Position numbers and translations under genes: made by a program. From NCBI GenBank assembly GCA_965248195.1, contig CBDFIQ010000001.1, positions 800,001 to 864,000 on the forward strand: 64,000 bases of DNA, given 5' to 3'. Positions 5,795 to 48,710 of the stretch are shown one piece after another. Each line of letters opens with the position of its first letter. Position 1 is the first letter of the stretch. This stretch comes from Longimicrobiales bacterium (GTDB lineage: Bacteria > Gemmatimonadota > Gemmatimonadetes > Longimicrobiales > Gaopeijiaceae). The notes under the pieces are model-generated. The model was given only the letters and a program-made list of their open reading frames with translations. It did no database searches and was not told the DNA's origin.

Positions 5795-7063
5795 TCACCC
5801 CTGAATCCTCCTTTCGATGTACTGAACGGCGGCCCGGTAGGTGTCAGGAATAAGGTGGGCGTAGGTCTCCTCGACGACCTTGGTCGTGTCACCTAGCAGG
5901 GTGGCGATCACATTGAGCGGAACGCCGTCCTGTGCCAGCCACGAGGCGTAAGTGTGACGACCCGAATGCAGCGTGAGCCCGTCGCCCTCCCTTCCGTACT
6001 TGATCCCGGCCAGCTCGAAGGCGTCCTGGGCCCAGCGAGCCGAGGTGCCGGCCGTCACAGGCTGGTCCCCGCGATGAGGGCTCACAATCAAGTACCGCTC
6101 CCCGGCATAGCCTCTGCGGAGGTGGTCTTCGATGATCGTGACGAGGCTCTCGGTGATTGGAACGTCCCTTTCACCGCGCCGCGTCTTCGGCCTCCAGGGA
6201 TAGGCATCCTTTCGGGACTGGACGCGGATGAGCGGTTCGGGGCTCTCCAGGAGCACATCCACGTCGGTGCGCAGATGTAGGATCTCGCCTTGGCGCAGTC
6301 CGGCGAGGAACGCAATCACGATCATCGCCCGGCTGGGGATCCCAAGCATACCGCGGTCCAGGTCCACCCACTCCGGTGGAGTCAGGAACACAGCCCGTGT
6401 GGGCCGGATCTCGGGCATCTCGACGCCCTTCCAGGGGTTGCTACGGATCGCAGGCTGTACGTTGCGGCGAGCGAGCAAGTCGGCCTCCTCGTCCATGACC
6501 ATGCTCCAGAGTGCCCCGCACACGACCTGGCAAGCCCCTTGGCTGGCAGGTGCCCACGGACGCCCCGCTGTGCTGGCTTTCGGGCCGTGCAGGTACGCGC
6601 GCGCCTCGTCGACCGTCAGCTCTTCCATAGGGAAGTCCGAGCCGACGTCTCTCTCAAGGTGCCCGAGAACCGTACGATACTTCTTGATGGTGGACCGACT
6701 GCGTGTCGCCTCTTTGAGCCTCAGGAACCTCTCGACGGCCGGCCCGAGCCGTGGCGAGTCGGAGCCCATGCGCCGCAGCTTGGTGGCGTCGCCGTTACGT
6801 AGCGCGGCCTGAGCGTCGGTGATGTGCATGTCGCCACGGCGGATCGCCTCGAGCACGTTCCAGTCGCCACGATCCATGAGCTGAGTCAGGACGGTATGGC
6901 GCTCGGTGGCCACATCCTGATCGCCGGTCCTGAGCGAGATCGCCAGGCGGCCGCCCTTGAACCGCGAGTGCCTACGGTCGAAGTAGGCGCGGCCAGCTCG
7001 CCATACGAGGCCCTTGGGGGCACGTGAGCGCTTTCTAGGGCCCACTGCCCACGAGCTCCTCAC
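5795..7063 (-). CDS. int: Tyrosine integrase
   Basis: AGLRQGE, PKT, LHSGRHTYAS, LLGD, ETYAH motifs; adjacent to att; exact start uncertain. Confidence 0.95.
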   Translation of the reverse strand: MRSSWAVGPRKRSRAPKGLVWRAGRAYFDRRHSRFKGGRLAISLRTGDQDVATERHTVLTQLMDRGDWNVLEAIRRGDMHITDAQAALRNGDATKLRRMGSDSPRLGPAVERFLRLKEATRSRSTIKKYRTVLGHLERDVGSDFPMEELTVDEARAYLHGPKASTAGRPWAPASQGACQVVCGALWSMVMDEEADLLARRNVQPAIRSNPWKGVEMPEIRPTRAVFLTPPEWVDLDRGMLGIPSRAMIVIAFLAGLRQGEILHLRTDVDVLLESPEPLIRVQSRKDAYPWRPKTRRGERDVPITESLVTIIEDHLRRGYAGERYLIVSPHRGDQPVTAGTSARWAQDAFELAGIKYGREGDGLTLHSGRHTYASWLAQDGVPLNVIATLLGDTTKVVEETYAHLIPDTYRAAVQYIERRIQG

Positions 7064-10476: not shown

Positions 10477-11349
10477 TTAGGCCCCGATGGCCTTCTTCTG
10501 CAGGTCCTTGATTGCGGCACGGACGCCGGGGCCGTCCTCGTCCTTGATCAGCTGCTCGAAGCGCTCCGCATCCTCGAGCTCGACGTCGTACTTATCCATG
10601 AGTTTGCGGAGCTTCTCGATCTCCTTCGACGTTGGGGGGGAGGCACCCTCTTCCTCTGCCGGCACCTCCTTCTCTTCAACGACGGTGGCCAAGGGGACAT
10701 CCTCGCCGTCGAGCGCGGCAGCCAGGTCCTTCACTCGGTCCTGCGCGCTAGGCCCGATGTCTTCGACCTCATCGGCCGTGTACATCCCGAGCCCGATCTC
10801 AGGGCAGTAGACGCGCGTCCAGAAGCCGCCGGCCCGGTACATGAGCATCTGCTCGGGCATTGTCTTCCACTTGCTGCCGCCCTTCTCATACCAGCCCTCG
10901 GCCTTCGCCAGTGCGATCGTGATGAGAGCACCTACACACTCATCTCCGCCGTCCTTGTCGACGGCCACCGCTCGGCACCCCCAGTCGTCCGAGCCCTCCG
11001 TGCCCTCGAACCGGAAGCGCAGCGGCGAGAACCGGCCCGAAGCGTTCACCGTGGCAATCAAGAACTTCGACCTCCAGGCCGGGCGGCCGTGGATGATGTC
11101 TAGGTTCTGCATCACCATGAACACCGACGCGCCGGTGCGGTTGGCCAGCTCCATGGCGATGAGGCAGTTCGGGAGGTTGTCCTGGTACTCCTTGGGGACC
11201 AACGAGCTTTTTGTGAGCGCCATCCCCATCCGCTGTGCAGCCTCGAAGTTGCCCTCGCTGGCGAAAGCTCCAATCGCTCCGCCCTCGTCGGCTAGGGTTT
11301 GGAATTCGTACCCGTCCGCTCTTGTGGCCACTGCTGTTGCGTCATCCAT
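10477..11349 (-). CDS. RecT-like single-strand annealing protein
   Basis: SSLVPKEYQ..NCLIAMELA..VMQNL..HGRP, WKTMPEQMLMYRA; paired with RecE-like gene. Confidence 0.8.
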   Translation of the reverse strand: MDDATAVATRADGYEFQTLADEGGAIGAFASEGNFEAAQRMGMALTKSSLVPKEYQDNLPNCLIAMELANRTGASVFMVMQNLDIIHGRPAWRSKFLIATVNASGRFSPLRFRFEGTEGSDDWGCRAVAVDKDGGDECVGALITIALAKAEGWYEKGGSKWKTMPEQMLMYRAGGFWTRVYCPEIGLGMYTADEVEDIGPSAQDRVKDLAAALDGEDVPLATVVEEKEVPAEEEGASPPTSKEIEKLRKLMDKYDVELEDAERFEQLIKDEDGPGVRAAIKDLQKKAIGA

Positions 11350-11364
11350 CGTTCAACTCCCGGT

Positions 11365-11892
11365 CTAAAGATTCAGGCTCGCGAACTCGCCGAAGAGTTC
11401 TTTTGCCGCGACGTCCCGCGCCCTAGCCGCCTCTTCTTCGCTCACGAAATATCCGAGTTCTATCACTTTGCCTTCATGCTCGATCTTGGCTCGCCACCGC
11501 CTACGCAACTCGGGCCGGCTCTTCTGGAAAGAGACCCCCAAATACCTGGACGACCCTCCCTTGCTGACCTTGTTTCGTTGGTTCTCCACCTGCGAACACA
11601 CGCGGAGGTTGCCTCTCCTATTATCCAGGCCATCGTGGTTGATGTGGTCCACATAGACCCTTGGGTGGGTCACTCCGACGATGATCCGGTGCATGGACAC
11701 CATTTTCGCGCCGAAGGCTAGTGGGGTCCTGCCAACGGCGTATTGATGCCCGCACTTGATGATCCGACACCAGCGGATCGCAGAAATGAGCGGGAGATCG
11801 ATTAAGTCGAAGACGGCTACGTAATCACGTCCGATGTCCATCTGGATGACGTCGGCAACTACCTCGTAGCTATTGCGGGCGATCAGATTCAC
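11365..11892 (-). CDS. HNH endonuclease with AP2 domain
   Basis: VDHINHDGLDNRRGNLR and YLGVS...WRAKI...LGYF..EEEAARARD. Confidence 0.92.
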   Translation of the reverse strand: MNLIARNSYEVVADVIQMDIGRDYVAVFDLIDLPLISAIRWCRIIKCGHQYAVGRTPLAFGAKMVSMHRIIVGVTHPRVYVDHINHDGLDNRRGNLRVCSQVENQRNKVSKGGSSRYLGVSFQKSRPELRRRWRAKIEHEGKVIELGYFVSEEEAARARDVAAKELFGEFASLNL

Positions 11893-12806
11893 TCGTCCTC
11901 CTGCCGCTCATCGAACGCCCAGGGAGGCATCTTCAAGGAGATCATCTCATCTGAGAACCCGGGCCAGTGATCGTCGCCCAGGCACATGGCGTATCTATTC
12001 AGGTGTCTCGTGATCTCTCGGTTGCTCGCCGCCAGGTCGTCCTCGTCGAGCAGATAGACGGCGACGGGGTAGGGAGGCTCATTCTCGGGCACGATGAGGA
12101 CACTGGAGTTGCGTTCCCGGCCGAGCGCATCACAGCCCCGACGATAGAACGCAGCCTTGCGGTGATAACCCATCTTGGCGGCGTCCCGTCGGAACCCGTG
12201 TGGGCTCGCATCGCGAGCGGACTTGAGATCTGCGATGAGCAGTGAGCGCTCGACGTCCCGGTCGATCCGCATCTTGCAGAGCACTCCGGTCTCTTCGTCG
12301 CGCCAGATGCCGGTCAACTCGTAATCGCCCCGACCCTGGAAGAACGTGCGAGCACGGGGATGCGCCTGGATCGCGGCAGTCATACCTTGCAGGTCCGCCA
12401 TCGCGTCCTGGGACAGTACATGGACGCCCGGATCCATCGGCTCGCCGTCGAGGGGGTCGTGGCCCCTCACACCGCAGTACGATGATCCGTCACGGTAAAC
12501 GCTGCCCTGGTTCTCGCATGGGAACCCGGACCTCTTCTGCGCCTCGCACTGGCCGAGCGTGACGTACTGGCCCTCGAACAACAGCGGCTCAAGGAGCGCC
12601 ATGTGCAGCGCCGTGCCGAGCTCCATCGCCGGTGTTGACGGCTTCGGGTTGTCCCGGTAGTACCGGAAGTGGAGCGGGCTCTTGCGCAACTGCTCGATCC
12701 CCGACGCGCTCATCGCGTCGATGGCGAGGTACTCCTCCATCGTGAGCCCCTCGTGCCAACCCACTTCGATCGCGGTGGTCGGCTCTTCCATCGTCGCCGT
12801 GCTCAT
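11889..12806 (-). CDS. RecE/ExoVIII-like PD-(D/E)XK exonuclease
   Basis: GTALHMALLEP, CKMRID, IADLKS, GYHRKAAFY. Confidence 0.88.
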   Translation of the reverse strand: MSTATMEEPTTAIEVGWHEGLTMEEYLAIDAMSASGIEQLRKSPLHFRYYRDNPKPSTPAMELGTALHMALLEPLLFEGQYVTLGQCEAQKRSGFPCENQGSVYRDGSSYCGVRGHDPLDGEPMDPGVHVLSQDAMADLQGMTAAIQAHPRARTFFQGRGDYELTGIWRDEETGVLCKMRIDRDVERSLLIADLKSARDASPHGFRRDAAKMGYHRKAAFYRRGCDALGRERNSSVLIVPENEPPYPVAVYLLDEDDLAASNREITRHLNRYAMCLGDDHWPGFSDEMISLKMPPWAFDERQEDE

Positions 12807-13800: not shown

Positions 13801-14363
13801 GTCAGACCAACTCATATCGACGCTCCTCACGCTCGTTGGGATGTTCGGGGTGGCTGCGCTCGGCGCCTTGGTACAGGTGCTCGTCACGCGCAAGGTCATG
13901 CTGGCTCATGGCGTTGACCCGCTGGAAATCGACAGGGAGTTCTTGCGCGATCTCTTTGGCGACGAGAGATAGGCGGAAATCAGCGCACGGACCCACGCGG
14001 CCTCAATCTCAGCCACCGTCAGAAAGTCGCCCCGCTCTCGGGCCCTCAGCAGCGTCACAAGTAGTTCCGGATAGTGCTCGGCTAGCCAGGAGTCGAGGCG
14101 CAGGTCGGCGGACATCGAGCCGGCTCCGTCTCTCCCGTGTGCGCGTACCGGATGGTCGCAGTTCGATCTTCGGTCGCTCGGGCCGGGCCCCCTCACGGCG
14201 CCGCCTCCGTCTCCGCCAGCACGCGCTCGCTCATGGACGAGAAGGCTCCCCCGCTGATACGATCAGCGTCGCCAAACAACCGATCAGCCATCAACGGAGG
14301 AGCCTCCTGTGAGCGTTCTGAGCACCGGCGAGAAACCGATGGACCGCGAATACCAACGCGCAC

Positions 14364-14615
14364 TCATCCCTCACCCCCCGCCAGCACCACGCGGGCGAGT
14401 TCGGCGAGCCTCCAATGCTCCCAGTCGCCGCCCCATCGCTCGGCACGCTCCGTGTCACCGCCCCAGGAGTCGTACTCCGGTTCCATCTCGGGCGCGTCCC
14501 GGACGATCTCGCGCAGACACGCCAACATCTCCGGCGCGGCGGCGATCAGCCGGGCGTTCGCCCTGCAACGCTCCAGTGACAGGGCTTCGGGGGTCAGAGT
14601 GTGCGCCGCATTCAC
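14364..14615 (-). CDS. ANARLIAAAPE-motif phage protein, diverged copy
   Basis: Common phage motif; repeat unit gene A. Confidence 0.7.
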   Translation of the reverse strand: MNAAHTLTPEALSLERCRANARLIAAAPEMLACLREIVRDAPEMEPEYDSWGGDTERAERWGGDWEHWRLAELARVVLAGGEG

Positions 14616-14616
14616 G

Positions 14617-14919
14617 CTATTCGTTCCTTTTCCGCTTCCGCGTCGGTGCTGCGGGACGCGACGGTCCGCTGGGCAACTGAAGCACTGGTCCGTCTGCCGG
14701 ACGCAGTTCAGCTATTTCAAACAGGTGCCGGGCCGTCGTGAGCGCGACATCCTGCAGGGGTCGCATCCGCAAGTAGCCGATCGGGCGGTGTGTGGCCTCG
14801 ATGCTCGCGAGCGTCAGCCAGTGCTCGCCCTCTCGGTTCACGTTCTCCACGATCACCGTCGCCGTGCCAAACTCCGCGTCCTTGACGATCTGAATCCGGC
14901 CATGCTCGCCCGCACTCAT
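14617..14919 (-). CDS. Hypothetical protein, repeat unit gene B
   Basis: Coupled ORF, duplicate of 15169-15465. Confidence 0.6.
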   Translation of the reverse strand: MSAGEHGRIQIVKDAEFGTATVIVENVNREGEHWLTLASIEATHRPIGYLRMRPLQDVALTTARHLFEIAELRPADGPVLQLPSGPSRPAAPTRKRKRNE

Positions 14920-15167
14920 CCCTCACCCCCCGCCAGCACCGCGCGGGCGAGTTCGGCGAGCCTCCAGTGCTCCTGAGCGCTGCCCCACCGCTCGGCGCGC
15001 TCTGTGTCACCGCCCCAGTCCCCGTACTCCGGTTCCGTCTCGGGCGCGTCCCGGACGATCTCGCGCAGACACGCCAACATCTCCGGCGCGGCGGCGATCA
15101 GCCGGGCGTTCGCCCTGCAACGCTCCAGTGACAGGGCTTCGGGGGTCAGAGTGTGCGCCGCATTCAC
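14916..15167 (-). CDS. ANARLIAAAPE-motif phage protein
   Basis: Repeat unit gene A. Confidence 0.7.
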   Translation of the reverse strand: MNAAHTLTPEALSLERCRANARLIAAAPEMLACLREIVRDAPETEPEYGDWGGDTERAERWGSAQEHWRLAELARAVLAGGEG

Positions 15168-15168
15168 G

Positions 15169-15465
15169 CTATTCGTTCCTTTTCCGCGTCGGTGCTGCGG
15201 GACGCGACGGTCCGCTGGGCAACTGAAGCACTGGTCCGTCTGCCGGACGCAGTTCAGCTATTTCAAACAGGTGCCGGGCCGTCGTGAGCGCGACATCCTG
15301 CAGGGGTCGCATCCGCAAGTAGCCGATCGGGCGGTGTGTGGCCTCGATGCTCGCGAGCGTCAGCCAGTGCTCGCCCTCTCGGTTCACGTTCTCCACGATC
15401 ACCGTCGCCGTGCCAAACTCCGCGTCCTTGACGATCTGAATCCGGCCATGCTCGCCCGCACTCAT
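15169..15465 (-). CDS. Hypothetical protein, repeat unit gene B
   Basis: Coupled ORF. Confidence 0.6.
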   Translation of the reverse strand: MSAGEHGRIQIVKDAEFGTATVIVENVNREGEHWLTLASIEATHRPIGYLRMRPLQDVALTTARHLFEIAELRPADGPVLQLPSGPSRPAAPTRKRNE

Positions 15466-15665
15466 CCCTCACCCCCCGCCAGCACCGCGCGGGCGAGTTC
15501 GGCGAGCCTCCAGTGCTCCTGAGCGCTGCCCCACCGCTCGGCGCGCTCTGTGTCACCGCCCCAGTCCCCGTACTCCGGTTCCGTCTCGGGCGCGTCCCGG
15601 ACGATCTCGCGCAGACACGCCAACATCTCCGGCGCGGCGGCGATCAGCCGGGCGTTCGCCGTCAC
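15462..15665 (-). CDS. ANARLIAAAPE-motif phage protein, short copy
   Basis: Repeat unit gene A lacking the first residues. Confidence 0.6.
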   Translation of the reverse strand: MTANARLIAAAPEMLACLREIVRDAPETEPEYGDWGGDTERAERWGSAQEHWRLAELARAVLAGGEG

Positions 15666-15714
15666 GATGCCACCTCCTCGACTCCCTCAGCGACCCGGCG
15701 CTCGGGTAGCTCTC

Positions 15715-16044
15715 TCATCGTGAGTTCACCTGGACGACGGTGCCCCGAGCCAACGTGGTCGGCTTGTGCGGAGCGGTGAACGCCCGCCCCCTGATAACCC
15801 GCTTGGCGCCGCCGCTGTAGCGAACCGTGACCGAACCCATGCCCCTTGCGAGTACCTTGAGCTTGGTGCCCCGGTGGTCGTAGCAGACGCGACCCCGACG
15901 CAGGTTGCCGAGGTAGACGCACCCAGGAGCGAACGCCGGTGTGTCGTTGCCGTCGTAGTCGACGAAGGGCTCCACCGTCTCAGGCCCCCTCCTCTGTGAG
16001 GCCAGCGCATCCCGCAACGAGTGCGCGTCCTGGGTGCGCCTCAC
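15715..16044 (-). CDS. Hypothetical phage protein
   Basis: Coupled to cro stop. Confidence 0.55.
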   Translation of the reverse strand: MRRTQDAHSLRDALASQRRGPETVEPFVDYDGNDTPAFAPGCVYLGNLRRGRVCYDHRGTKLKVLARGMGSVTVRYSGGAKRVIRGRAFTAPHKPTTLARGTVVQVNSR

Positions 16045-16310
16045 CCCGCCACCTCCTCGACTCCCTCACCCGCCAGCACCCGCTCGCGGGCCTCGGTCAA
16101 GACGCGCCCCTTGGCCTCTTCACCCGCACGGTTCGCGCGCGCCACCAGGTCTAGAGCTTCGTCGGCATCAGACATAAACCCTTCATACGGCGGGCGGCGG
16201 CCCTTGAGGATGTGATTCAGCTGGGTCGCGTTGATCCCCAACGTGTCCGCGAGGTCCTGCTGGGTGATGCCTAGCTCGGCCATCCGCCCCCGGAATTTTT
16301 TTATGTCCAT
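16041..16310 (-). CDS. Cro-like XRE HTH regulator
   Basis: ITQQDLADTLGINATQLNHILKGRR; divergent from repressor. Confidence 0.9.
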   Translation of the reverse strand: MDIKKFRGRMAELGITQQDLADTLGINATQLNHILKGRRPPYEGFMSDADEALDLVARANRAGEEAKGRVLTEARERVLAGEGVEEVAG

Positions 16311-16405: not shown

Positions 16406-17161
16406 ATGATTGGCGAGCGTTTGGTTGAGTTACGGAGGCGGGCCGGGTTGACCCAGACCCAACTTGCGGTTGCCCTCGGCGATCGGTATACGGGCTCGAT
16501 GATCTCGATGGTGGAGCACAACCACTCGGGACTTCTCCTCGATGGCGCGACGAAGGCAGCCGAGGTGCTGAACGTCTCGCTCGACTACCTCACAGGCCTC
16601 ACCGATGACCCGGCCCCGGTCGACGACCGGGTGGAGGAGGAGAGGCGGAGCCGTGCGAAGCTGGAAGCCGCGCTACGGAGCGCCGAGGAGGAGCGCGACC
16701 GCCTGCGGGCACGGGTGGGCCAGGTGGCGACTGACGGCCTTACGGACGAGACCGAGCCCGACGCGAAGCCCATTCCGGTCCATCGACTCCAGACTGCGGC
16801 GGGCAGCGGCGCTTTCGACCTGGACGAGACGGTCAAGACCTACGCCTACTTTCGCAGCGAGTGGCTGTTCAGGAAGGGGCTCGCCGCCGACCGCTGTAAC
16901 ATCATCGGCGTCGCGGGAGAGTCGATGGAGCCCACGCTGCCCGACGGCTGCGTCATCCTTGTCGACCGCAACCGAACCAAGCGGTACCGGGGACACATCT
17001 TCGTGGTACGCACGGAGGACGGCCTGGTGGTCAAGCGCGCGGGCAAGGACGAGGGCGGCGGCTGGCAGCTGGTTAGCGATCACCCTGAGTGGAAACCGCA
17101 GCCGTGGCCGGACGGAGCGGAGGTGATTGGAGAAGTGAAATGGATGGCGAGGGAGTTGTGA
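16406..17161 (+). CDS. CI-like repressor (XRE HTH + S24 peptidase)
   Basis: HTH, AAG cleavage region, GESMEPTL serine, VVKR lysine, EVIGEVKW end. Confidence 0.96.
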   Translation: MIGERLVELRRRAGLTQTQLAVALGDRYTGSMISMVEHNHSGLLLDGATKAAEVLNVSLDYLTGLTDDPAPVDDRVEEERRSRAKLEAALRSAEEERDRLRARVGQVATDGLTDETEPDAKPIPVHRLQTAAGSGAFDLDETVKTYAYFRSEWLFRKGLAADRCNIIGVAGESMEPTLPDGCVILVDRNRTKRYRGHIFVVRTEDGLVVKRAGKDEGGGWQLVSDHPEWKPQPWPDGAEVIGEVKWMAREL

Positions 17162-17212
17162 GGGGGCGCACCGAGGGTTTGGTTGAGCCTAACTTCTCTT
17201 GGGGTTACCCTT

Positions 17213-17296
17213 CCGGCGTACGAGCCACAGCCGCTCGACGATCGAGCCCGAATCATGGGCCGCGTCGTCTGGTGGGCCCACACGGAGCTAGCGTGA
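17213..17296 (+). repeat. Orphan S24 repressor 3' end, copy 1
   Basis: PAYEPQPLDDRARIMGRVVWWAHTELA-stop. Confidence 0.85.
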
Positions 17297-17339
17297 GGTG
17301 ATGGTGACACCGAAACATTGAGAGGGGAGCTGTAGGCCA

Positions 17340-17516
17340 ATGAACGGAGAAGATCGCTACGTCATCGTCACAGATGTCCAGATGAAGTTCTGGAGCATGG
17401 TCACGTTCATGGTGAAGTGGGCCGTCGCTTCGATTCCTGCGGTGATCATCCTGATGATTCTGGGCTTTGTGTTGTCAGTTGTGTTCGCCGGATTCTTCGC
17501 CGGACTCTCCGGATAA
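17340..17516 (+). CDS. Small membrane protein (58 aa)
   Basis: MNGEDRYVIVTDVQMKFWSMVTFMVKWAVASIPA...; RBS upstream; below ORF-track cutoff. Confidence 0.8.
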   Translation: MNGEDRYVIVTDVQMKFWSMVTFMVKWAVASIPAVIILMILGFVLSVVFAGFFAGLSG

Positions 17517-17548
17517 GATGCGAGAGGCTTCCCCCGCGGCTGGAGAGG

Positions 17549-17638
17549 GATGCCTACCGGCCTGTGCCATGGCCCGAGGAGGCTGAGGTCGTCGGGGAAG
17601 TGAAGTGGCACGGCGAGACGCTGCGAGGATCGAGGTGA
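17549..17638 (+). repeat. Orphan S24 repressor 3' end, copy 2 (resident-cI type)
   Basis: DAYRPVPWPEEAEVVGEVKWHGETL versus cI WKPQPWPDGAEVIGEVKWMAREL. Confidence 0.85.
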
Positions 17639-17641
17639 GGA

Positions 17642-17695
17642 GGGGATCGCCAGGGAATCCTAGGCCGCGTCGTCTGGTTGGCCCACACGGATTGA
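17642..17695 (+). repeat. Orphan S24 repressor 3' end, copy 3
   Basis: GDRQGILGRVVWLAHTD-stop. Confidence 0.82.
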
Positions 17696-17776
17696 TGGTG
17701 GGAGATCGCCCTTGACCATCGGCATTCTTGCTGTTTCAGCAGCCGCTATCCCCCCCCTAATGGCGAAGGAGGGGGC

Positions 17777-18580
17777 GTGTTTCCCGTGACAACTCGTATT
17801 GGGGCGCTGGTACTGGTGTTGCTTATGGGCTGCTCTCAGGAGCTGAGCCGGCCCGTGGCCGAGGACCTCATAGCGGCCCATTTGGTGGGCCTCACCCCAA
17901 ACCTACCGGACAGCCTGAGATCGACCGTAGTAGTTGGATCAGTGATCCAAGTGGACGATTTCACCCGCGAAACCCGAATCAATATCATCTTTCGAGCGGA
18001 CACGGTTCCCGCCAGCGCCTTTTTTCGCGAGAGCGATGACGGTTGGGCGTTGGTTGAGTACGGGCCCAATTTCAAAAACACGGTGGCGAGCCTGGTGACC
18101 TCGGATGTCCGTGGCTTGTACATTGACCTGCTCGATGTTCTGGACCGCGTGAACGTACCGCTCCAGGCGTGGGTAGCTGACTTCCTAGACCGCAGCGATG
18201 TTGCCCGAAGAGCACAAGGAGTATCCGGCGATGAGTGGGTACGCCTGTTCGACTTGGCACGCGATGGGCCATCCGAAGAGGTGTCGAGGACTCTTGTGAG
18301 CGATGCTGGAGTTGTGGTCCCAGAAGGGGTTTACTGGAGTCTTGAGCAAAGTGAATACTTTGCTCCCATTCTTTGGGTCGCATCGGATCCAGATCGAGGG
18401 GTTTGGTGTGGGCAGGTATTCAACTACTCCAGCAAAGATGTCCCGCCAGAATTTTTCGGGATCGACGACATGTCTGGCTCATACTGTACGGGCCGTCGGA
18501 GAGCTTACTCCTTGTTGAGTACCTACGAGAGAACCCTCGCCCTGATTGAGGAAGGCGGAGGAATCCTTCTTAACCCGTGA
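17777..18580 (+). CDS. Hypothetical lipoprotein (moron)
   Basis: Lipobox LMGC after hydrophobic stretch; lower GC. Confidence 0.75.
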   Translation: MFPVTTRIGALVLVLLMGCSQELSRPVAEDLIAAHLVGLTPNLPDSLRSTVVVGSVIQVDDFTRETRINIIFRADTVPASAFFRESDDGWALVEYGPNFKNTVASLVTSDVRGLYIDLLDVLDRVNVPLQAWVADFLDRSDVARRAQGVSGDEWVRLFDLARDGPSEEVSRTLVSDAGVVVPEGVYWSLEQSEYFAPILWVASDPDRGVWCGQVFNYSSKDVPPEFFGIDDMSGSYCTGRRRAYSLLSTYERTLALIEEGGGILLNP

Positions 18581-19116
18581 CCCTCCGCGACTGGACCGAC
18601 CCCGGCGACAGCAAGAAGAGACTTATATTTCTCGTGATCGTTTGGTTGGGTCACGCAGGCATCGGGACGGCCCAGGTGAGCGACGCGGCTCAAGGCGCGG
18701 CCGATGGCGAGGCCGCCGCCGCCAGTCTACGCGGGCCAGGGGGGTACATCGCGATAATGGGTGCGGGCGGCCTCCTATCCGGCGCAGTTAATAGAAGCCG
18801 CGTGAGCAGTGGGAGGGATCTCGCGACCGAAGCTGGGATCTACGGGGCCATTGGGATAGCCGGTGGGATCGTGATAGGCTTGCTCTCCAGTGACTTGCCA
18901 GACGAGCTCTCGGAAAGCATAGCTGACCGACCCGATGATTATCGAATGTCCTTCGAGCAGGAGTACCGGCAGAGGTATAGATCCGATGCGCTTATACGGG
19001 GAATCTTAGGTGGCCTGGTCGCGGGCGTGGCCTACGCGCTCACCGCGGGAGCAGGCAACGACCGACTCGACGACGGACCATCCTATACCCTCATTTCTGC
19101 TCGTGTCCGATTCTGA
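18577..19116 (+). CDS. Hypothetical membrane protein (moron)
   Basis: Signal-like N-terminus and Gly-rich TM segments. Confidence 0.7.
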   Translation: MTLRDWTDPGDSKKRLIFLVIVWLGHAGIGTAQVSDAAQGAADGEAAAASLRGPGGYIAIMGAGGLLSGAVNRSRVSSGRDLATEAGIYGAIGIAGGIVIGLLSSDLPDELSESIADRPDDYRMSFEQEYRQRYRSDALIRGILGGLVAGVAYALTAGAGNDRLDDGPSYTLISARVRF

Positions 19117-19299
19117 TGTCGGTCCACGAAGTAACCCATGACTCTTCGCGACTGGACCGACCCCCGGTGAGATCACCTCAACAAGGGGAGCTGAAGAGCA
19201 ATGGCAAATGATGATCACCCTGGCACTGCGCAAGGAACTCGATGTATTCATGGACCTCGGAAAGCAACTCAATCAACAGGTGGTCGAGAAGAGGTGGGA

Positions 19300-19374
19300 G
19301 AGCCCCAGCCGCTCGATGATCGAGCCCGAATCATGGGCCGCGTCGTCTGGTGGGCGCACACGGAGGAGGGGTAA
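19300..19374 (+). repeat. Orphan S24 repressor 3' end, copy 4
   Basis: EPQPLDDRARIMGRVVWWAHTEEG-stop; nearly identical to copy 1. Confidence 0.87.
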
Positions 19375-19387
19375 TCCTTGCTATACT

Positions 19388-19430
19388 CCATGACATGTAC
19401 TATACTACATTATCAGTATGATACATGGGG
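19388..19430 (+). promoter_or_regulatory. Putative higBA promoter/operator
   Basis: AT-rich imperfect palindrome CATGTACTATACT...AGTATGATACATG upstream of higB. Confidence 0.55.
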
Positions 19431-19438
19431 TGTAGCTT

Positions 19439-19729
19439 ATGATCGGTGCGTTTCGCAACCGGCAGACCGAGGAGATCTACCACGATGAGGGGCGTCGGTC
19501 CAAGGCTGCACTCCGGACTCTGCCGGCCGACTTGTGGGGCGGCGCCTATCGGAAGATGGCGGCGCTGGGTGCAGCGACGACACTGAACGACCTCTCACGG
19601 TTCGGCTTGGAGAAGCTGACGAAAGACAGAAAGGGGCAACACTCGATACGGATCAACGACCAGTACCGGATTTGCTTTGAATGGACCGAAGCCGGTCCCC
19701 GTGAAGTCGAGATAACCGACTACCACTAG
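19439..19729 (+). CDS. higB: HigB (RelE-family) toxin
   Basis: LEKLTKDRKGQHSIRINDQYRICFEW...VEITDYH. Confidence 0.93.
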   Translation: MIGAFRNRQTEEIYHDEGRRSKAALRTLPADLWGGAYRKMAALGAATTLNDLSRFGLEKLTKDRKGQHSIRINDQYRICFEWTEAGPREVEITDYH

Positions 19730-19804
19730 AGGCAGACACCCACGAAGTCCACGAAAGCAAAAAGCACGGGGCGACCACGCTCGCCCCAGGAGGGTCGCCA
19801 CAAC

Positions 19805-20116
19805 ATGCTTCTACCCAAGGGGAGGGTCCCGGTCCATCCGGGAGAGATGTTGCTCGAGGAGTTTCTAAAGCCTGCGTGCATAAGCCAGTACAAGCTGTCC
19901 AAGGACACGGGGATGACGTATCGCCGCGTGAACGAGATCGTGAACGGTCGCCGTCCGGTCACGCTCGACACCGCGTTCCGGTTCGCTCGCTATTTCGACA
20001 TGAGTGCCGGGTTCTGGATCAACCTACAGGCTGCGTGGGACACCTGGTATTTCCAGAATTCGGAGGACTACAAGGCCATCGAGAAGGACGTCGAGCCGAT
20101 GGAGGCCGTGGGCTAG
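19805..20116 (+). CDS. higA: HigA antitoxin
   Basis: PVHPGEMLLEEFLKP, RVNEIVNGRR, FWINLQ. Confidence 0.94.
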   Translation: MLLPKGRVPVHPGEMLLEEFLKPACISQYKLSKDTGMTYRRVNEIVNGRRPVTLDTAFRFARYFDMSAGFWINLQAAWDTWYFQNSEDYKAIEKDVEPMEAVG

Positions 20117-20231
20117 GCCGGGTGTGCCTCGTAACCCATCGCGCCGACCGACCTGCCGCCACTCACCGACTCGCCAGCGCATATGCAGCCGCGAACACGC
20201 CAGCATGGGGTGATCCATCGGAGGTCTGTCA

Positions 20232-20288
20232 GACGACGATCGAGCCCGAATCCTAGGCTGCGTAGTCTGGTGGGCGCATACGGATTAG
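20232..20288 (+). repeat. Orphan S24 repressor 3' end, copy 5
   Basis: DDDRARILGCVVWWAHTD-stop. Confidence 0.85.
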
Positions 20289-20529
20289 GGGTGAGGGGGT
20301 GGGGAGTCAGGTCATGTGGAGGACGCTGTGAGCCGGACGCGACACCTGGTGCAGCCGTACCGTGAGGTTGAAGAAGCGTTACTTGCAGGGCGGTCACCCG
20401 CGGGGTGGTCGTTCTCGTGTTCAGCGATGATCTGTCCACGGCTACGGCACCCTGGCTTCCCCAGCCAAGAAACCAAGTCCCGCCTCTCGCTGTGCCTCGG
20501 CTGCTTGCTCGATTCCGAGGCAAGCGCGA

Positions 20530-21117
20530 TTGTTGACTATGGTACCTTGGGTCGATTTTGCAGACGTGGACGACAGCGAAGACTTCTTGCCCTTTAGGGA
20601 AGACAAGGCGACACAGGTTGCATCCCGCTTCATCGAGAAAGAGGGCGGGAGCATTCGCATCCTCAAGCTCGTCAAGCTGGTGTACCTCACGGACCGCACG
20701 AGTCTGCTGCGATTCGGCAGGCCAGTGACTTTTGACGAATTCTACTCCTTGCCCTACGGCCCCATTCCGAGTTCGACGCTCGACCGCATCAACTCTTATG
20801 GGTTCGAGGACTCTGTCTGGAAGCGGTTCATCAGCCTACGCGAGGGGAACACGGTAAGGCTCGTCGCTCCGGCTAAACCTTCGGATCTGTCGAAGGCGGA
20901 GGTAGACCTTATCGACGAGGTCTGGGACGAGTATGGGCGCATTGATGTTGTCGAATACAGCCACCAACTGCCGGAGTGGGAACATCCCCAGGAGAAAGGA
21001 AGGCTTAGGATCAGATACGCAGACATCCTGAAAGCGGAAGGGTGGCCTGCAGATGAAATATCCGAACTCTTAGGGGTGCTGAAGGCAGAGAAGGTAGCAA
21101 CCGACCTCCTGGGATGA
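20530..21117 (+). CDS. SocA/Panacea (DUF4065) antitoxin-like protein
   Basis: LKLVKLVYLTDR...LPYGPIPS...YSHQLPEW. Confidence 0.85.
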   Translation: MLTMVPWVDFADVDDSEDFLPFREDKATQVASRFIEKEGGSIRILKLVKLVYLTDRTSLLRFGRPVTFDEFYSLPYGPIPSSTLDRINSYGFEDSVWKRFISLREGNTVRLVAPAKPSDLSKAEVDLIDEVWDEYGRIDVVEYSHQLPEWEHPQEKGRLRIRYADILKAEGWPADEISELLGVLKAEKVATDLLG

Positions 21118-21424
21118 ATGAACAGGGGCCCGTTGCGTTGCGTATGTGTAGGTACAATATTGCAGGTGCGGCCCCACCAGGTACCGAACCCCCTAACCAT
21201 CTTAGGGTGAGCGCCGCCACGAAACGGCGAATAGGGCCTGGGGGGCCATGCCCGGCTCATTGATTGTGGATTTGCTAGAGGCGCAGGCCGGTGCGAGCTA
21301 GGACACCCGTAGCCTAAAGGGGCGTCCTTAGGAAACCGATGGCCTGTCAGGGGGGTTTAACACTTGTGTACGGACTGTCCCAACGTATTTTCTCGGTGCA
21401 TGGACCCAATATGGGAGGCTGAGT

Positions 21425-21616
21425 ATGAGTGATGCGCCGGATCGGGCTAAGGTCACGGTGAGGGATTCGGGTGTCCGTACAGTATCTGTAGCTGACATCC
21501 TGAGGAGCAGAGCAGGTCAAGAAGCAATCCGCGAGACGGCCAAGCTCGGGCTCGGCTCCGAGGCCAGTGCAAGAACAGAGAAGAGCGATCCCGAGGTGAG
21601 CCCGCCAGACAGTTAG
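21425..21616 (+). CDS. Small hypothetical protein
   Basis: GGAGG RBS, immediately upstream of membrane gene. Confidence 0.5.
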   Translation: MSDAPDRAKVTVRDSGVRTVSVADILRSRAGQEAIRETAKLGLGSEASARTEKSDPEVSPPDS

Positions 21617-21619
21617 CAC

Positions 21620-22345
21620 GTGCCGTTCAACGTACTCCTCCTTCCCCTCCTCGGGGGATACGTCTTTATTTCACACTGGAACAAGACGCGGTTCGGTGCC
21701 CGGAGGTACACGGGCCAACGGCTGATCCTCCACTCGGCCCTCGCAGGTGTCTGTTTGTTCCTGGTCTCTTTCTTGATTACAAAGTTCGGTGCTATCTGCT
21801 TTCCTGAACTTCTCTCTTGGTGGCGTGCGTATGTTTCCCGTGAATCGTTTGCGGGGACGTCGTTTCTCGCATTTCTAATAGGGTCGGTGGGATGGAAGCC
21901 GATAAACTGGTTCTTTGACAGAAATATCGAGTCTTTGCGGGCAGTTAAGGAGTCGGGGGATTTTCTTGAGGAACTCCTAGAGCACTCCAAAACAGAGGCC
22001 AAGCAGGTGTCCGTCACGCTGAGGTCCGGCAAGATCTATGTGGGGTTCGTGACGGGTTCCTTTGACCCCGCCTTCGATCGAAAATATGTGAGCCTCTTTA
22101 CCACGCTGAGTGGCTACCGTGAGTCGACGACCCAGCAGATGAAGATCTCTCACAACTATGCTATCACGTGGGCGGAGGAGCTGGAGGCGGAGGAGCTGGA
22201 GGCGGAGGAGCTGAAGGAGAGGTTTCAGTTGGTCATCCCGGTATCCGAGATCGTTTCCGCTAGCCTCTTTGAGCCAGAGGTCTACATGCGATTCCAGAGA
22301 TCCACGCTCGACCAGTCAAGAACCGATACACCCATTATCGACTAG
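21620..22345 (+). CDS. Membrane protein with Sm-like C-terminal motif (moron)
   Basis: Three TM stretches then VSVTLRSGKIYVGFV...LVIPVSEIVSA. Confidence 0.75.
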   Translation: MPFNVLLLPLLGGYVFISHWNKTRFGARRYTGQRLILHSALAGVCLFLVSFLITKFGAICFPELLSWWRAYVSRESFAGTSFLAFLIGSVGWKPINWFFDRNIESLRAVKESGDFLEELLEHSKTEAKQVSVTLRSGKIYVGFVTGSFDPAFDRKYVSLFTTLSGYRESTTQQMKISHNYAITWAEELEAEELEAEELKERFQLVIPVSEIVSASLFEPEVYMRFQRSTLDQSRTDTPIID

Positions 22346-22590
22346 CGATCACATACCCAGCGGCGAACACGCCAGCGTACTTGAGGGCACCGACCACCGG
22401 GCCAGTCCACCTCGTGTCGTTCCGCTGTACCTCGATCCGTAGGCGAGCCTCGTAGTCCTGGATCACCTGGTCTTGGGTGGCGCTCACCCTTTCGGCGGCG
22501 GCGTAGCGAGTCTGCCAGAGCCGGGCAGTGGAATCAGCGACCGCGAGTTGTGAGCGCAGCGACCGGACAAGTGTCCGGTGCCGTGTCCGT
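22335..22590 (-). pseudogene. Orphan 3' fragment of a coiled-coil/TM lysis-region gene
   Basis: Coiled coil plus C-terminal TM like 22703-23377, no plausible start. Confidence 0.45.
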
Positions 22591-22702: not shown

Positions 22703-23377
22703 CTAGAAGATCCAGTCGATCAGCTTCGAGCCACCCTGCGTGACCAGAAACGTCGTGCCGCCGACGATGAGCGCTTCGATGGTGGAGCCTCCGAGCAGCT
22801 CAGTCGTGACGAGGTAGCCGCCGGCTCCGAGCGCCGCGGACTCAAGCGTACTGAAGCCGTCATGTCGCAGGTCTTCGAGTAGCGCGACCTGTTCGGTGGC
22901 GATGCCGATTTCGGATTCCAGCCCGGATATGAGCGCGTCGCGTGTGGTGATCTGGCCGCGCAGTACGTCGGCGGCATCGCGTTCGGCGTAGATGACGATG
23001 TTCAATACCGCGACCTCGGTCTCGTGCATGCGTTCTCGGCGTTCGACGAGCGCTCGGATTTCTGGCATCGAGTCGGGCACGGATTCGATGATCCGGACGT
23101 AAGTCTGACGCCCTTCGGCGGATACTTCACTCGCTCGGTGTTCCGCGTCTTCGACTACCGCGTTGAGCTGGGCGATCGAGTCGGCTGCGATGCGGTCTAT
23201 CTGGTCCTTCGCGGCGCGGAGAGCGTCGTTCTCGCGTTGGGCCGCTTCGCGTTCAGAGCGCACGAATTCGAGCTCGGCTTCCTTCGCGGCTACCGAGTCG
23301 ACCCCGGCTCGCCACAGTCCAAAAGCGGACAGCGCGAGTATGGCCAGGAGCAACTCGGGGCGCGTTGGGGCCCTCAT
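22703..23377 (-). CDS. Spanin-like coiled-coil membrane protein
   Basis: N-terminal TM, long coiled coil, C-terminal hydrophobic segments, after endolysin. Confidence 0.6.
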   Translation of the reverse strand: MRAPTRPELLLAILALSAFGLWRAGVDSVAAKEAELEFVRSEREAAQRENDALRAAKDQIDRIAADSIAQLNAVVEDAEHRASEVSAEGRQTYVRIIESVPDSMPEIRALVERRERMHETEVAVLNIVIYAERDAADVLRGQITTRDALISGLESEIGIATEQVALLEDLRHDGFSTLESAALGAGGYLVTTELLGGSTIEALIVGGTTFLVTQGGSKLIDWIF

Positions 23378-47055: not shown

Positions 47056-47334
47056 TGAGCGCTCCTACGAAGCCCGGCGTTCGAAGAGGTGTCTCGGTGC
47101 TTGCTGTCGGGACTGAGGGCTATCGTCACCCAACGGTCCCGCCTCTCCTCGTTTCGAAAAATGCTTTCGGGGTACTGGTATTCTCGTTTGCCCATGTGGT
47201 GCTCGGATTGCGTCACCGCCTTCAAAACTCGCCTGAATGTTTCGATCGGTTCGTTCTCGCCCCTCAGTTGTTCGTTGTAGAGCTTTCGTAAAGCTAAACT
47301 TCGGGCCTTCGTTAACTTCGGTTTCCTTCCTTCC

Positions 47335-48710
47335 GGTAGTGTCCCTAGATTTGTGTAAAAGCGGATAAGCTGGACAGGAGGGAAAGAAAAACGGAAGCTC
47401 CTCTGTTGTTGTTCACTGTCACATGAACCCGGGAGTCCGGGTCTGCAGAGCAGGCTCGGAACCGGAGAGGAGCTTCCGATGCAAGAGATTGTGGAGATCG
47501 GTCGGGCCACGCAAGACGAGCTACGCGATGATTTGCGCGAGCTGTTTCAAGGCGCGATCCGGCTGACGCTCGAGATGGTGCTGGAAGAGGAGCTGAAGGC
47601 CATGGTAGGTGCACGCCGCTTCGAGCGGGTGGGAAGCCGGAAGGACCATAGGAACGGCACATACCTGAGGCGGCTGCTGACGAGCCTGGGGCAGATCGAG
47701 GTCGCCATGCCCCGGAGCCGGGACAACGGTTCGCCGGCCGACGTGATCGGCCGCTACCAGCGCAGGAGCCCCGAGCTCGACGAGATGATGGTCGAGGCGT
47801 ATGTGAGCGGCGTGTCACAGCGCAAGATGGGCGACGTCACCGAGGCGCTGATGGGCGAGCGTGTTGGGCGCTCGACGGTGAGTCGTGTGGCAAAACGGCT
47901 CGACGAGGCCGTGGAAGGGCTGCGCCGTGCGCCGATCGAGGGGCCTCACCCCTATCTGTACCTGGACGCCACGTTCTTGGACGCCCGCTGGGCCCGCAAA
48001 GTCGAGAACGTGAGTGCGCTCGTGGCGTATGCAGTGGGCCCTGAGGGTCACCGACGGCTCCTGGCCGTCACGCTGGGCGCTGAGGAGTCGCAGCAGAGCT
48101 GGTCGGAGCTCCTCGAGCAACTCCAGGACCGCGGCCTCGGCGGTGTCGAGCTCGTGATCGCCGATGAGCACGCAGGCCTGGCAGCTGCGGTCCGCCGCTT
48201 CCTGCCCGAGGCACGCCGTCAGAGGTGTACGGTCCATCTGCAGCGTAATGTGGGGGCGAGGGTCCCCCACCGCCTACGCAAGCGCGTGGCGCGTGAGGTC
48301 TCGGTGATCTTCCAGACATCCGGACTCGCCGAGGCGAAGAAGCTCCTGGGCGAGTTCGGCGCACGCTGGAAGAAGGAGCTGCCCGAGGCCGTGGAGGTCC
48401 TGGAGCGGGGCTTCGGGGCAGCGACGCAGTTCTACGCGTTCCCCGAGGCGCACTGGCCCCGGCTGCGTACCACCAACAGCCTCGAGCGGCTGCACGGCGA
48501 GATCAAACGCAGGATCAAGGCCGCCGGCGCCTTCCCGGACCGGGCCAGCGCCCTCAGGCTCATCACGGCCGTCGCACTCAGGACCACACACGTCTGGGGC
48601 GACCGGCGTTACCTCGACCTCTCACTCCTCCAGAAACAGGAGGTCGCCCAAGCAGCCTAGCCGAAGGCGAGGAGCTTCCTCCGCTTTTACACACAAATCG
48701 GGACTTGACC
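47335..48710 (+). mobile_element. IS256-family element (1376 bp)
   Basis: Imperfect 31-bp IRs GGT...GTGTAAAAGCGGA; 8-bp TSD TTCCTTCC at 47327 and 48711. Confidence 0.95.
47479..48660 (+). CDS. IS256 transposase
   Basis: RNG, YLYLDA, QRCTVH, RTTNSLERLHGEIKRR. Confidence 0.97.
   Translation: MQEIVEIGRATQDELRDDLRELFQGAIRLTLEMVLEEELKAMVGARRFERVGSRKDHRNGTYLRRLLTSLGQIEVAMPRSRDNGSPADVIGRYQRRSPELDEMMVEAYVSGVSQRKMGDVTEALMGERVGRSTVSRVAKRLDEAVEGLRRAPIEGPHPYLYLDATFLDARWARKVENVSALVAYAVGPEGHRRLLAVTLGAEESQQSWSELLEQLQDRGLGGVELVIADEHAGLAAAVRRFLPEARRQRCTVHLQRNVGARVPHRLRKRVAREVSVIFQTSGLAEAKKLLGEFGARWKKELPEAVEVLERGFGAATQFYAFPEAHWPRLRTTNSLERLHGEIKRRIKAAGAFPDRASALRLITAVALRTTHVWGDRRYLDLSLLQKQEVAQAA

Follow-up and report, generated by a model that had tools for sequence, protein, structure and literature searches.

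Orphan 3′ ends of repressor genes punctuate a cargo-exchange array in prophages of a Longimicrobiales bacterium

The DNA studied here, a 64,000-nt stretch of a Longimicrobiales genome (assembly GCA_965248195.1, contig CBDFIQ010000001.1, positions 800,001 to 864,000; hereafter the window), contains a prophage whose repressor gene cI and late genes converge from both sides on a 5.5-kb region of cargo genes. Downstream of the intact cI, this region is punctuated by five orphan 3′ ends of repressor genes, which we call tails (T1 to T5). Such tails are ends of cI genes with a ragged 5′ side; they are confined to the cargo regions of prophages, are mirrored by similar ends of a gene on the lysis side, and mark places where cargo changes. 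Together, these observations give good support to a real and recurrent cargo-exchange array, which represents linker-mediated phage mosaicism in a new form and not an integron.

A reading of the sequence alone had described five co-oriented, start-less repressor fragments behind cI, and backward translation from each stop recovered all of them as frames closed by a stop (Table 1). Four (T1, T3, T4, and T5) correspond to the last 38 to 79 nt of a second repressor type, here called Y. Their suspected origin from an S24 domain is supported by T1, of which 69 nt match, at 97% identity, the end of a complete gene elsewhere in the genome (C1:369029-369868) that encodes HTH_3 and Peptidase_S24 domains (E 6.5e-21, Pfam). 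The near-identity that had been noticed between the first and fourth copies was measured as 95% over 66 nt, with a longest exact match of 38 nt, and both copies match the intact cI of another prophage of the genome (prophage B) even longer without a mismatch (50 nt for T1, 47 nt for T4). The earlier division into four tails of nonresident type and one of the resident type, X, needed qualification: T2 is indeed X-like, albeit at only 75% identity over 52 nt to the end of the resident cI and with no run of identity longer than 8 nt, while T3 (reading ...ILGRVVWLAHTD) and T5 (reading ...ILGCVVWWAHTD) are degenerate, their longest run of identity to any partner tested being 19 nt. The composite of T2 and T3 also occurs in a related genome (G126, locus L054), at 75% over 139 nt. 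All tails are too short for Pfam, and the two tail frames tested were assigned to no family.

To place the tails in the source genome (G000; 4.86 Mb in two contigs, C1 and C2, 91.8% complete), a DNA profile from eight copies of the sequence was run on it with E values up to 1. This returned 17 copies, namely two gene ends and 15 orphans, all within six prophage stretches (A, the one in the window, to F). A genome-wide repeat of the REP (repetitive extragenic palindromic) kind, which the sequence-only reading had named as the finding that would speak against it, is not what these copies represent: every one lies in a prophage, and they are not palindromic. Stretches C and F are in fact one prophage, the two contig ends overlapping by 1,117 nt; within prophage C, F forms a further accessory site, located between replication genes and terminase. 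Full repressors ending in GRVVWWAHT, whose existence had been anticipated, were found as well. Two intact Y-ending genes of G000 (C1:369029-369868 and C2:539575-540498) reside in two other prophages, and intact Y-type cI genes are also present in two relatives. The homologous proteins fetched include over 60 close Y-type repressors; in 47 of the proteins the C-terminus is GRVVWWAHTD, preceded by IM or IL, and others end in close variants, with differing helix-turn-helix (HTH) domains paired with a common C-terminal domain. In 60 relatives searched by blastn, we found five copies in one congener (G005) and otherwise three weak single matches; a repressor profile run over 200 genomes of the family located close genes solely in G005 and G126.

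Clustering of the tails behind cI, with variable cargo between them, became evident when the last 120 nt of every intact repressor was compared by blastn (at least 32 bits) with nine prophages of G000, G005, and G126. This screen yielded 28 same-strand matches downstream of cI in eight of the nine loci and no match upstream or on the opposite strand. Two control libraries taken from the middle of the genes produced one and zero downstream matches, the one being the longest tail. The cargo of these arrays includes AbiU2, RelE/HTH, RelA_SpoT, DarT/Macro (DarTG), HicB (HicAB), HigBA, methylases, and lipoproteins, together with the PADLOC candidates PDC-S16, M19B, and S34.

If the tails take part in exchange, related prophages should differ in cargo at these very positions, as the sequence-only reading had implied, and several comparisons bear this out. 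One example is given by three loci: L028 of G005 has an intact cI followed by cargo Q; prophage D of G000 has cI, cargo P, an orphan of 140 nt, and then Q; and L030 of G005 has cI, P, and the same orphan junction followed by cargo R. Between D and L028, Q differs at two positions in 1,458 nt and the tail at 11 in 137 nt. The same two prophages also have 242 nt in common (98%) that end in a 31-nt tail, after which they diverge. Another example is the window itself, which shows one difference in 345 nt from prophage C up to T1, with the same left junction, and unrelated genes thereafter. Similarly, the SocA cargo that follows T5 recurs in prophage C (100%/99% identical) behind a different tail and junction. 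Public contigs from two runs of one study (X5 and X7) cover window positions 18574-19357 at depths of 29 and 9.6, with nothing at 17819-18469 and a depth of <2 at 19555-19771; in other words, they contain the unit from spacer element J1 to T4 with neither the lipoprotein gene nor higBA. In run X1, which is probably the source sample and so not independent, X-type cI stops abut other Y-like ends, and summed depth reaches 2,326 at a tail position versus 21 to 33 in the cargo, a depth that sums all organisms. As to where within a tail the change occurs, in both pairs with near-identical downstream cargo the last mismatch falls among the final four bases of the tail, and for two pairs with common upstream DNA the mismatches start ∼10 and ∼25 nt into it. 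Exchange points thus appear to sit at the ends of homology, as expected of annealing across the whole of it.

The repressor is not alone in leaving such remnants. We found 11 orphan 3′ ends (K; 45 to 240 nt) of one type of lysis-side gene, two of which, K1 and K2, lie on the minus strand of the window; these and the spacer element J were absent from the sequence-only reading. The resident terminal gene (ending at 22703) is of another type, which has left no orphans. Since orphan ends of this kind come from genes on both flanks of the cargo region, nothing makes the end of the repressor gene a special site. The succession T4-higBA-K1 reads as the whole cargo region of another phage, with T5 following 27 nt later. 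Atlas searches with the lysis-side gene returned unnamed phage clusters only. The element J is probably post-cI spacer DNA, since contigs of other samples join the conserved post-cI spacer motif Z directly to it; its two copies (18571 and 19132) look like the result of a join that landed in the spacer and took no tail.

Measuring 23 orphans against eight intact genes (the anchor pattern did not pick up two others, T3 and C1:1479468) revealed lengths of 14 to 133 nt up to the anchor and 20 distinct left junctions. In all, the orphans show 70 differences from the consensus of the intact genes. Since 47 of these differences are alleles present in intact genes, and 17 of the remaining 23 fall on third codon positions (P 8e-5 versus 1/3, for copies that are not independent), the tails look as if freshly taken from working cI genes and not like decayed copies of one repeat.

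Arrays of this kind are not limited to this phage family. Of 19 loci with related repressors from outside the family, five had matches of at least 50 bits (L073, Terriglobia; L084, Alphaproteobacteria; L085 and L086, Bryobacterales; L092, Acidobacteriota), with five tails in L085 and three in L092. Two further loci gave weak matches at the level of the controls, which produced zero to two scattered matches per locus. L094 and L099-L101 were left out of this set for lack of a full gene; at the protein level, a repressor end and two tails can be recognized in L094. An unrelated, Mu-like prophage (L036/L037) carries, 305 nt past its cI, one 50-nt, 92% identical copy of the end of that gene; in L037 (10405-10763), a 300-bp insert separates cI from this copy, which is followed by cargo encoding a secreted protein. 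This is the sole case among nine viral loci with at least 2.7 kb downstream. A wider screen for self-copies covered 160 loci, 157 of them with a usable gene and 81 distinct with at least 1.5 kb downstream; four of the 81 were positive, two convincingly (L119 and L202), with 0 reversed, 0 upstream, and 1 control match. None of 12 cultured phages, hand-picked from the 60 listed of 265 tblastn matches, had tails. Exact-pattern scans for the Y tail in viral_contigs and metagenome_contigs found no match, and one Y-type protein used as a query found no viral relative. Likewise, 16 S24 genes of three further genomes of the bacterial family, G016, G219, and G090, were accompanied by no convincing tail, a single internal match of 32.8 bits being at control level. 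Single tails, then, arise sporadically, long arrays mark this phage group, and similar arrays exist in other phyla. As a separate observation, G016, G219, and G090 (L055-L070) each possess three to eight near-identical S24 C-terminal domains in frames of 186 to 606 amino acids, with no orphan tails.

How might such arrays arise? We favor an accidental, self-spreading gene-shuffling array as the best reading, and not a dedicated integron. On balance it seems probable that each tail is an overshoot left when an illegitimate join delivered the post-cI cargo of another phage, and that the tails then served as homology linkers for RecE and RecT (RecET) or for RecA. The birth step would be rare: a non-homologous join of two related phage genomes, either co-resident prophages or end-joined fragments, would place one cargo before another's. 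Partners for such joins would be at hand, since five prophages of the genome have near-identical integrases (95-99.9%) and long common blocks of 98-100% identity. The host encodes Ku, which has been linked to hosts of mosaic phages (PMC8136500). Joins would survive when both cargos remained whole and little DNA was added, the loss of cargo being punished by toxin-antitoxin, methylase, and defense genes. The incoming piece would often begin in the last 15 to 140 nt of its own cI, and the left piece would sometimes stop 45 to 240 nt inside the lysis-side gene; instability of long repeats, combined with selection for addictive cargo, would leave short overshoots.

The use step, by contrast to this rare birth, would be frequent and homologous. 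Being near-identical to all Y-type cI ends and to other tails, a Y tail could be the entry point at which the phage's RecET (or RecA) swaps or adds whatever follows, and recombination between T1 and T4 could delete the DNA between them. In this manner, arrays would grow and turn over with neither a dedicated site nor a dedicated enzyme. The RecT-like annealase noted in the sequence-only reading is indeed encoded here (a match to phrog_561), with RecE alongside. Exact pairing over 23 to 27 bp is needed by Red-beta and over 31 to 34 bp by RecA (PMC3945230), a minimum reached by T1 with T4 and by either of them with the cI of prophage B. Judged by their runs of identity, T1 and T4 would be the only good exchange substrates at present, and T1 with T4 the only pair in cis, since T3 and T5 share too few identical nucleotides in a row (≤19) and so do cI and T2 (8).

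Several points weigh against this account. The pattern of exchange at the ends of homology rests on four pairs, and repeated crossovers could also produce it. The identity runs of T3 and T5 are below the published minimum. No exchange event was caught in progress, contigs being unable to show a deletion between 66-nt repeats, and in no case are both parents of an illegitimate join known. With at least 20 joins in a 140-nt zone, there may be too many for selection alone, and joins that left no tail were not counted, just seen (J, and a deletion in D). Moreover, one of the nine family prophages lacks any tail, and three of the 15 orphans of G000 (in E and F) are inverted relative to the cI axis of their own prophage, which an exchange of co-oriented tails cannot achieve.

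The sequence-only reading had gone further and proposed an integron-like joint, and there are features to suggest that the core of the tail is a site for a site-specific recombinase acting in trans: most tails close with a 15-nt core that does not vary, followed by four variable bases and a conserved GGGTGA, and in two recent pairs the exchange point lies beside those four bases. Yet the 5′ ends of the tails vary, exchange points occur at either end of a tail with no fixed crossover point, and at least three unrelated tail types (Y, X, and K) behave alike. Moreover, the core encodes W-A-H-T, and the variable bases consist of a wobble base and the free last codon, which also ruled them out as a recombinase spacer. 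Folding of eight strands from four tails was no better than that of shuffled sequences (z -0.99 to -0.01), so that no attC-like hairpin is apparent; Rfam had no match in the tails and one sub-threshold match inside higB; and a promoter and terminator scan gave no match inside any tail. None of the 21 tyrosine-recombinase (PF00589) matches of the genome is in an array, the only nearby one being the prophage integrase 10 kb away, with the IntI-specific domain not searched separately. A reverse transcriptase (RVT_1), on which retro-copied cassettes would depend, had no match in G000. A dedicated system is therefore largely refuted, and we regard it as very improbable. Also unlikely in this prophage is the suggested swapping of the C-terminal tip of CI, as no run of identity between cI and T2 exceeds 8 nt; in Y-type phages, its effect would be confined to the final one to three residues and a few conservative positions. 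Orphans encode the last 5 to 45 residues only, and nearly the same ones as intact genes. A Chi-like role of TGGTGG was dropped without a genome-wide test, the motif being two Trp codons that are mostly missing in the shortest tails.

A more serious contender, albeit still an unlikely one, is polar accretion by target duplication. Here, new cargo would enter at the resident cI end, either through RecT-driven template switching or through integration of a circle of tail and cargo; cI would be rebuilt from the donor and the old end displaced downstream, so that the order records age as in an integron. The arrangement cI-P-tail-Q versus cI-Q is exactly the predicted product, the Mu-like L037 with its copy of its own cI end conforms to it, and the crowding of so many joins into a narrow zone hints at a mechanism. 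However, the first orphan is unlike the resident cI (X gene, Y tail) in the window, in prophage C, and in L054, an outcome that duplicating the resident end could not produce. Nor do tails become shorter with distance from cI, and illegitimate joining with subsequent homologous exchange yields the same products. That the tails are kept as an expression signal for the cargo (a ribosome-binding site or part of a promoter), with recombination as a side effect, we consider more improbable still. Even the shortest tails retain the last 14 to 19 nt and the following GGGTGA, and each match to the Z spacer is preceded by a Y tail or cI end. But shorter tails would escape detection, cargo in the window begins 44 to 242 nt past the tail stops, higBA has a promoter-like site of its own after T4, and X-type and lysis-side ends behave alike despite their other sequences. 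An assembly artefact or host-wide interspersed repeat, finally, might be suspected in a genome rich in copies of insertion sequences (IS) and near-identical prophages, in which two contig ends overlap inside prophage C. This is refuted, and hardly credible: the copies differ at coding-like positions, all 17 are in prophages, the same junctions recur in independently assembled genomes, and pieces of the window were recovered in public contigs.

Table 1. Tails, cargo, spacers, and resident prophage genes of the window
Feature	Position	Strand	Evidence or remark
Tyrosine integrase of prophage	5795..7063	-	phrog_1, E 2e-39; outside array
RecT-like single-strand annealase, candidate shuffling enzyme	10477..11349	-	phrog_561, E 3.5e-70; Pfam RecT, E 5.6e-5, just under cut-off
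RecE-like exonuclease VIII	11889..12806	-	phrog_412, E 6e-72
Cro-like HTH gene	16041..16310	-	Pfam HTH_3
Resident cI, X-type C-terminus (...GEVKWMAREL)	16406..17161	+	Pfam HTH_3 + Peptidase_S24, E 2.9e-17
T1, orphan Y-type cI 3′ end	17218..17296	+	∼70 nt homology
Cargo: 58-aa membrane protein	17340..17516	+	Open reading frame (ORF); no family
T2, orphan X-type cI 3′ end	∼17550..17638	+	75% to resident cI
T3, degenerate orphan Y-type end	17655..17695	+	
Z, conserved post-cI spacer motif	17732..17755	+	Ahead of ribosome-binding site of lipoprotein cargo
Cargo: 267-aa lipoprotein-like protein	17777..18580	+	ORF, signal/lipobox-like start; no family
J1, repeated spacer element	18571..18603	+	No tail
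Cargo: 179-aa membrane protein	18577..19116	+	ORF
J2, second copy of J	19132..19164	+	91%
T4, orphan Y-type end	19300..19374	+	
Sigma70-like promoter match for higBA	19378..19406	+	9/12; weak, 3 sites found vs 1.9 expected
Cargo: HigB-like toxin	19439..19729	+	PF05015, E 1.3e-8
Cargo: HigA-like HTH antitoxin	19805..20116	+	PF01381
K1, orphan 3′ end (45 nt) of lysis-side terminal gene	20162..20206	-	84% to intact gene end in L054
T5, orphan Y-type end	20234..20288	+	27 nt past K1
Cargo: SocA/Panacea-domain antitoxin-like protein	20530..21117	+	PF13274, E 1.2e-17
M, non-coding spacer	21127..21287	.	Also in four other prophage stretches of the genome; no Rfam family
Cargo: 63-aa ORF + 241-aa membrane protein	21425..22345	+	DUF6338-like, weak; phrog_3630; block 96-97% identical in prophages B and E
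K2, orphan 3′ end (240 nt), same lysis-side gene type	22339..22578	-	91% to intact gene C2:3022326-3022970
Resident terminal late gene, 224 aa, type other than K	22703..23377	-	After amidase (neighbor = Amidase_2); right-hand boundary of cargo region

The prophage in the window adjoins what we take, from the translations, to be dnaA and dnaN. Regarding its cargo, Pfam agreed with the earlier naming of a HigB-like toxin, an HTH antitoxin, and a SocA/Panacea protein. The membrane proteins of 58 and 179 amino acids and the lipoprotein had no family in Pfam, PADLOC, or PHROG, and an Atlas search with the 267-aa lipoprotein gave matches under 0.9 only and no name. The SocA/Panacea gene (20530-21117) has no evident toxin gene beside it, and its copy in prophage C is split by IS copies. 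Two non-coding blocks (21127-21287 and 21329-21436) are 92-100% common to several prophage stretches, have no match in Rfam, and may be further linkers or a small RNA.

Other features of these prophages deserve mention in their own right. The five near-identical integrase genes, each of which heads its prophage, occupy five chromosomal places (window 5795-7063; C1:358100, C1:1454300, C2:530700, and C2:285000) with no common sequence left of ∼120 nt from the gene, possibly reflecting an integrase of relaxed site choice. The left arm contains ∼2.5 tandem copies of a 550-bp unit of two small genes (14359-15736; 94-99% identical), fewer copies of which in sibling prophages point to recent amplification or another shuffling repeat. 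Between recT and recE lies a gene resembling homing endonucleases (11365-11892; HNH_3 + AP2) that is missing from the G005 sibling. An IS256-family element (47333-48710) has on the order of 100 near-identical copies genome-wide; together with IS3- and IS5-family copies, it riddles the cargo regions of prophages B, C, and D, and one IS256 copy is inserted at a tail end with an 8-bp duplication. In L028 (12082-12939), a junction has created a gene fusion: the reading frame of a 285-aa cargo gene beside a DNA methylase continues into an orphan tail, so that the product closes with the final residues of the repressor. Inverted tail-cargo units are found at G000:C2:2552554-2553238 and C2:3349387-3350461.

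A long-standing question is how temperate phages acquire moron and defense genes, whether through homologous exchange at short linkers or through illegitimate joining. The arrays appear to record both steps in one place, the tail marking the join and then acting as a linker. With T1 and T4, or T4 and a co-resident cI, RecT-driven exchange of cargo could be measured on a small, defined substrate, and orphan repressor ends offer an inexpensive way to locate cassette borders and unstudied defense genes by sequence. A bolder possibility, which we regard as doubtful, is an evolved, recombinase-light cassette system in which the annealase inserts cargo at the ends of both flanking genes and leaves the old end as a joint, allowing ordered growth, trade across phyla, and excisable circles. 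If this were true, the coding end of the repressor would be the first known gene terminus to serve as the repeat of such an array.

How does the array compare with known systems? Integrons combine tandem cargo and related sites with a site-specific recombinase and fixed crossover points, and islands that restore the 3′ end of their target gene leave displaced gene ends downstream, again with a site-specific recombinase. No description of arrays of orphan repressor ends was found in the literature searched, which comprised mostly listings and the beginnings of abstracts, most subscription papers, including older lambdoid comparisons, being outside it; searches directed at such arrays returned nothing, and in the main text of a hotspot survey (10.1101/2024.10.15.618418), a term search returned neither "repressor" nor "repeat." Tandem SCC cassettes (PMC11470126) also consist of tandem cargo units, yet depend on a site-specific recombinase and a fixed crossover, neither of which was seen here. 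The array sits in the defense hotspot downstream of cI known from lambdoid phages (rexAB, bstA; PMC8585504) and, like the toxin locus flanked by paratox (PMC6224593), has variable defense or fitness cargo beside a conserved gene at which flanking recombination can take place. In those systems, however, cargo is exchanged between two single flanks, the portions of these papers at hand mention no internal array of flank remnants, and the 12 cultured phages screened here had none. PeSL cassettes of the T4-type phages RB49 and phi1 (PMC2839356) resemble our array as repeated short elements in a variable region where accessory genes are shuffled, possibly through circles, but they are promoter plus stem-loop terminator units of lytic phages, whereas the tails are unfolded, have ragged 5′ ends, and contain no promoter consensus. 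In rhs (and cdi/maf) loci (PMC3967940), a full main gene is followed by start-less fragments, each with different downstream genes, and when main gene and orphan recombine, the attached part changes, as we propose here; an rhs orphan, though, brings a new toxic C-terminal domain fused into the protein, while a swap at the extreme repressor end would alter the downstream genes and hardly the protein. A close parallel is provided by the boundary or linker sequences of temperate phages with mosaic genomes, in which modules are bordered by short conserved stretches that allow different modules to be swapped by homologous recombination (PMC3029335), with exchange by a Rad52-like recombinase (PMC3945230) and an annealase present as in our prophage. 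What sets the present arrays apart is that the linkers are the coding 3′ ends of both flanking genes, multiplied into an internal array in which each would record an illegitimate join.

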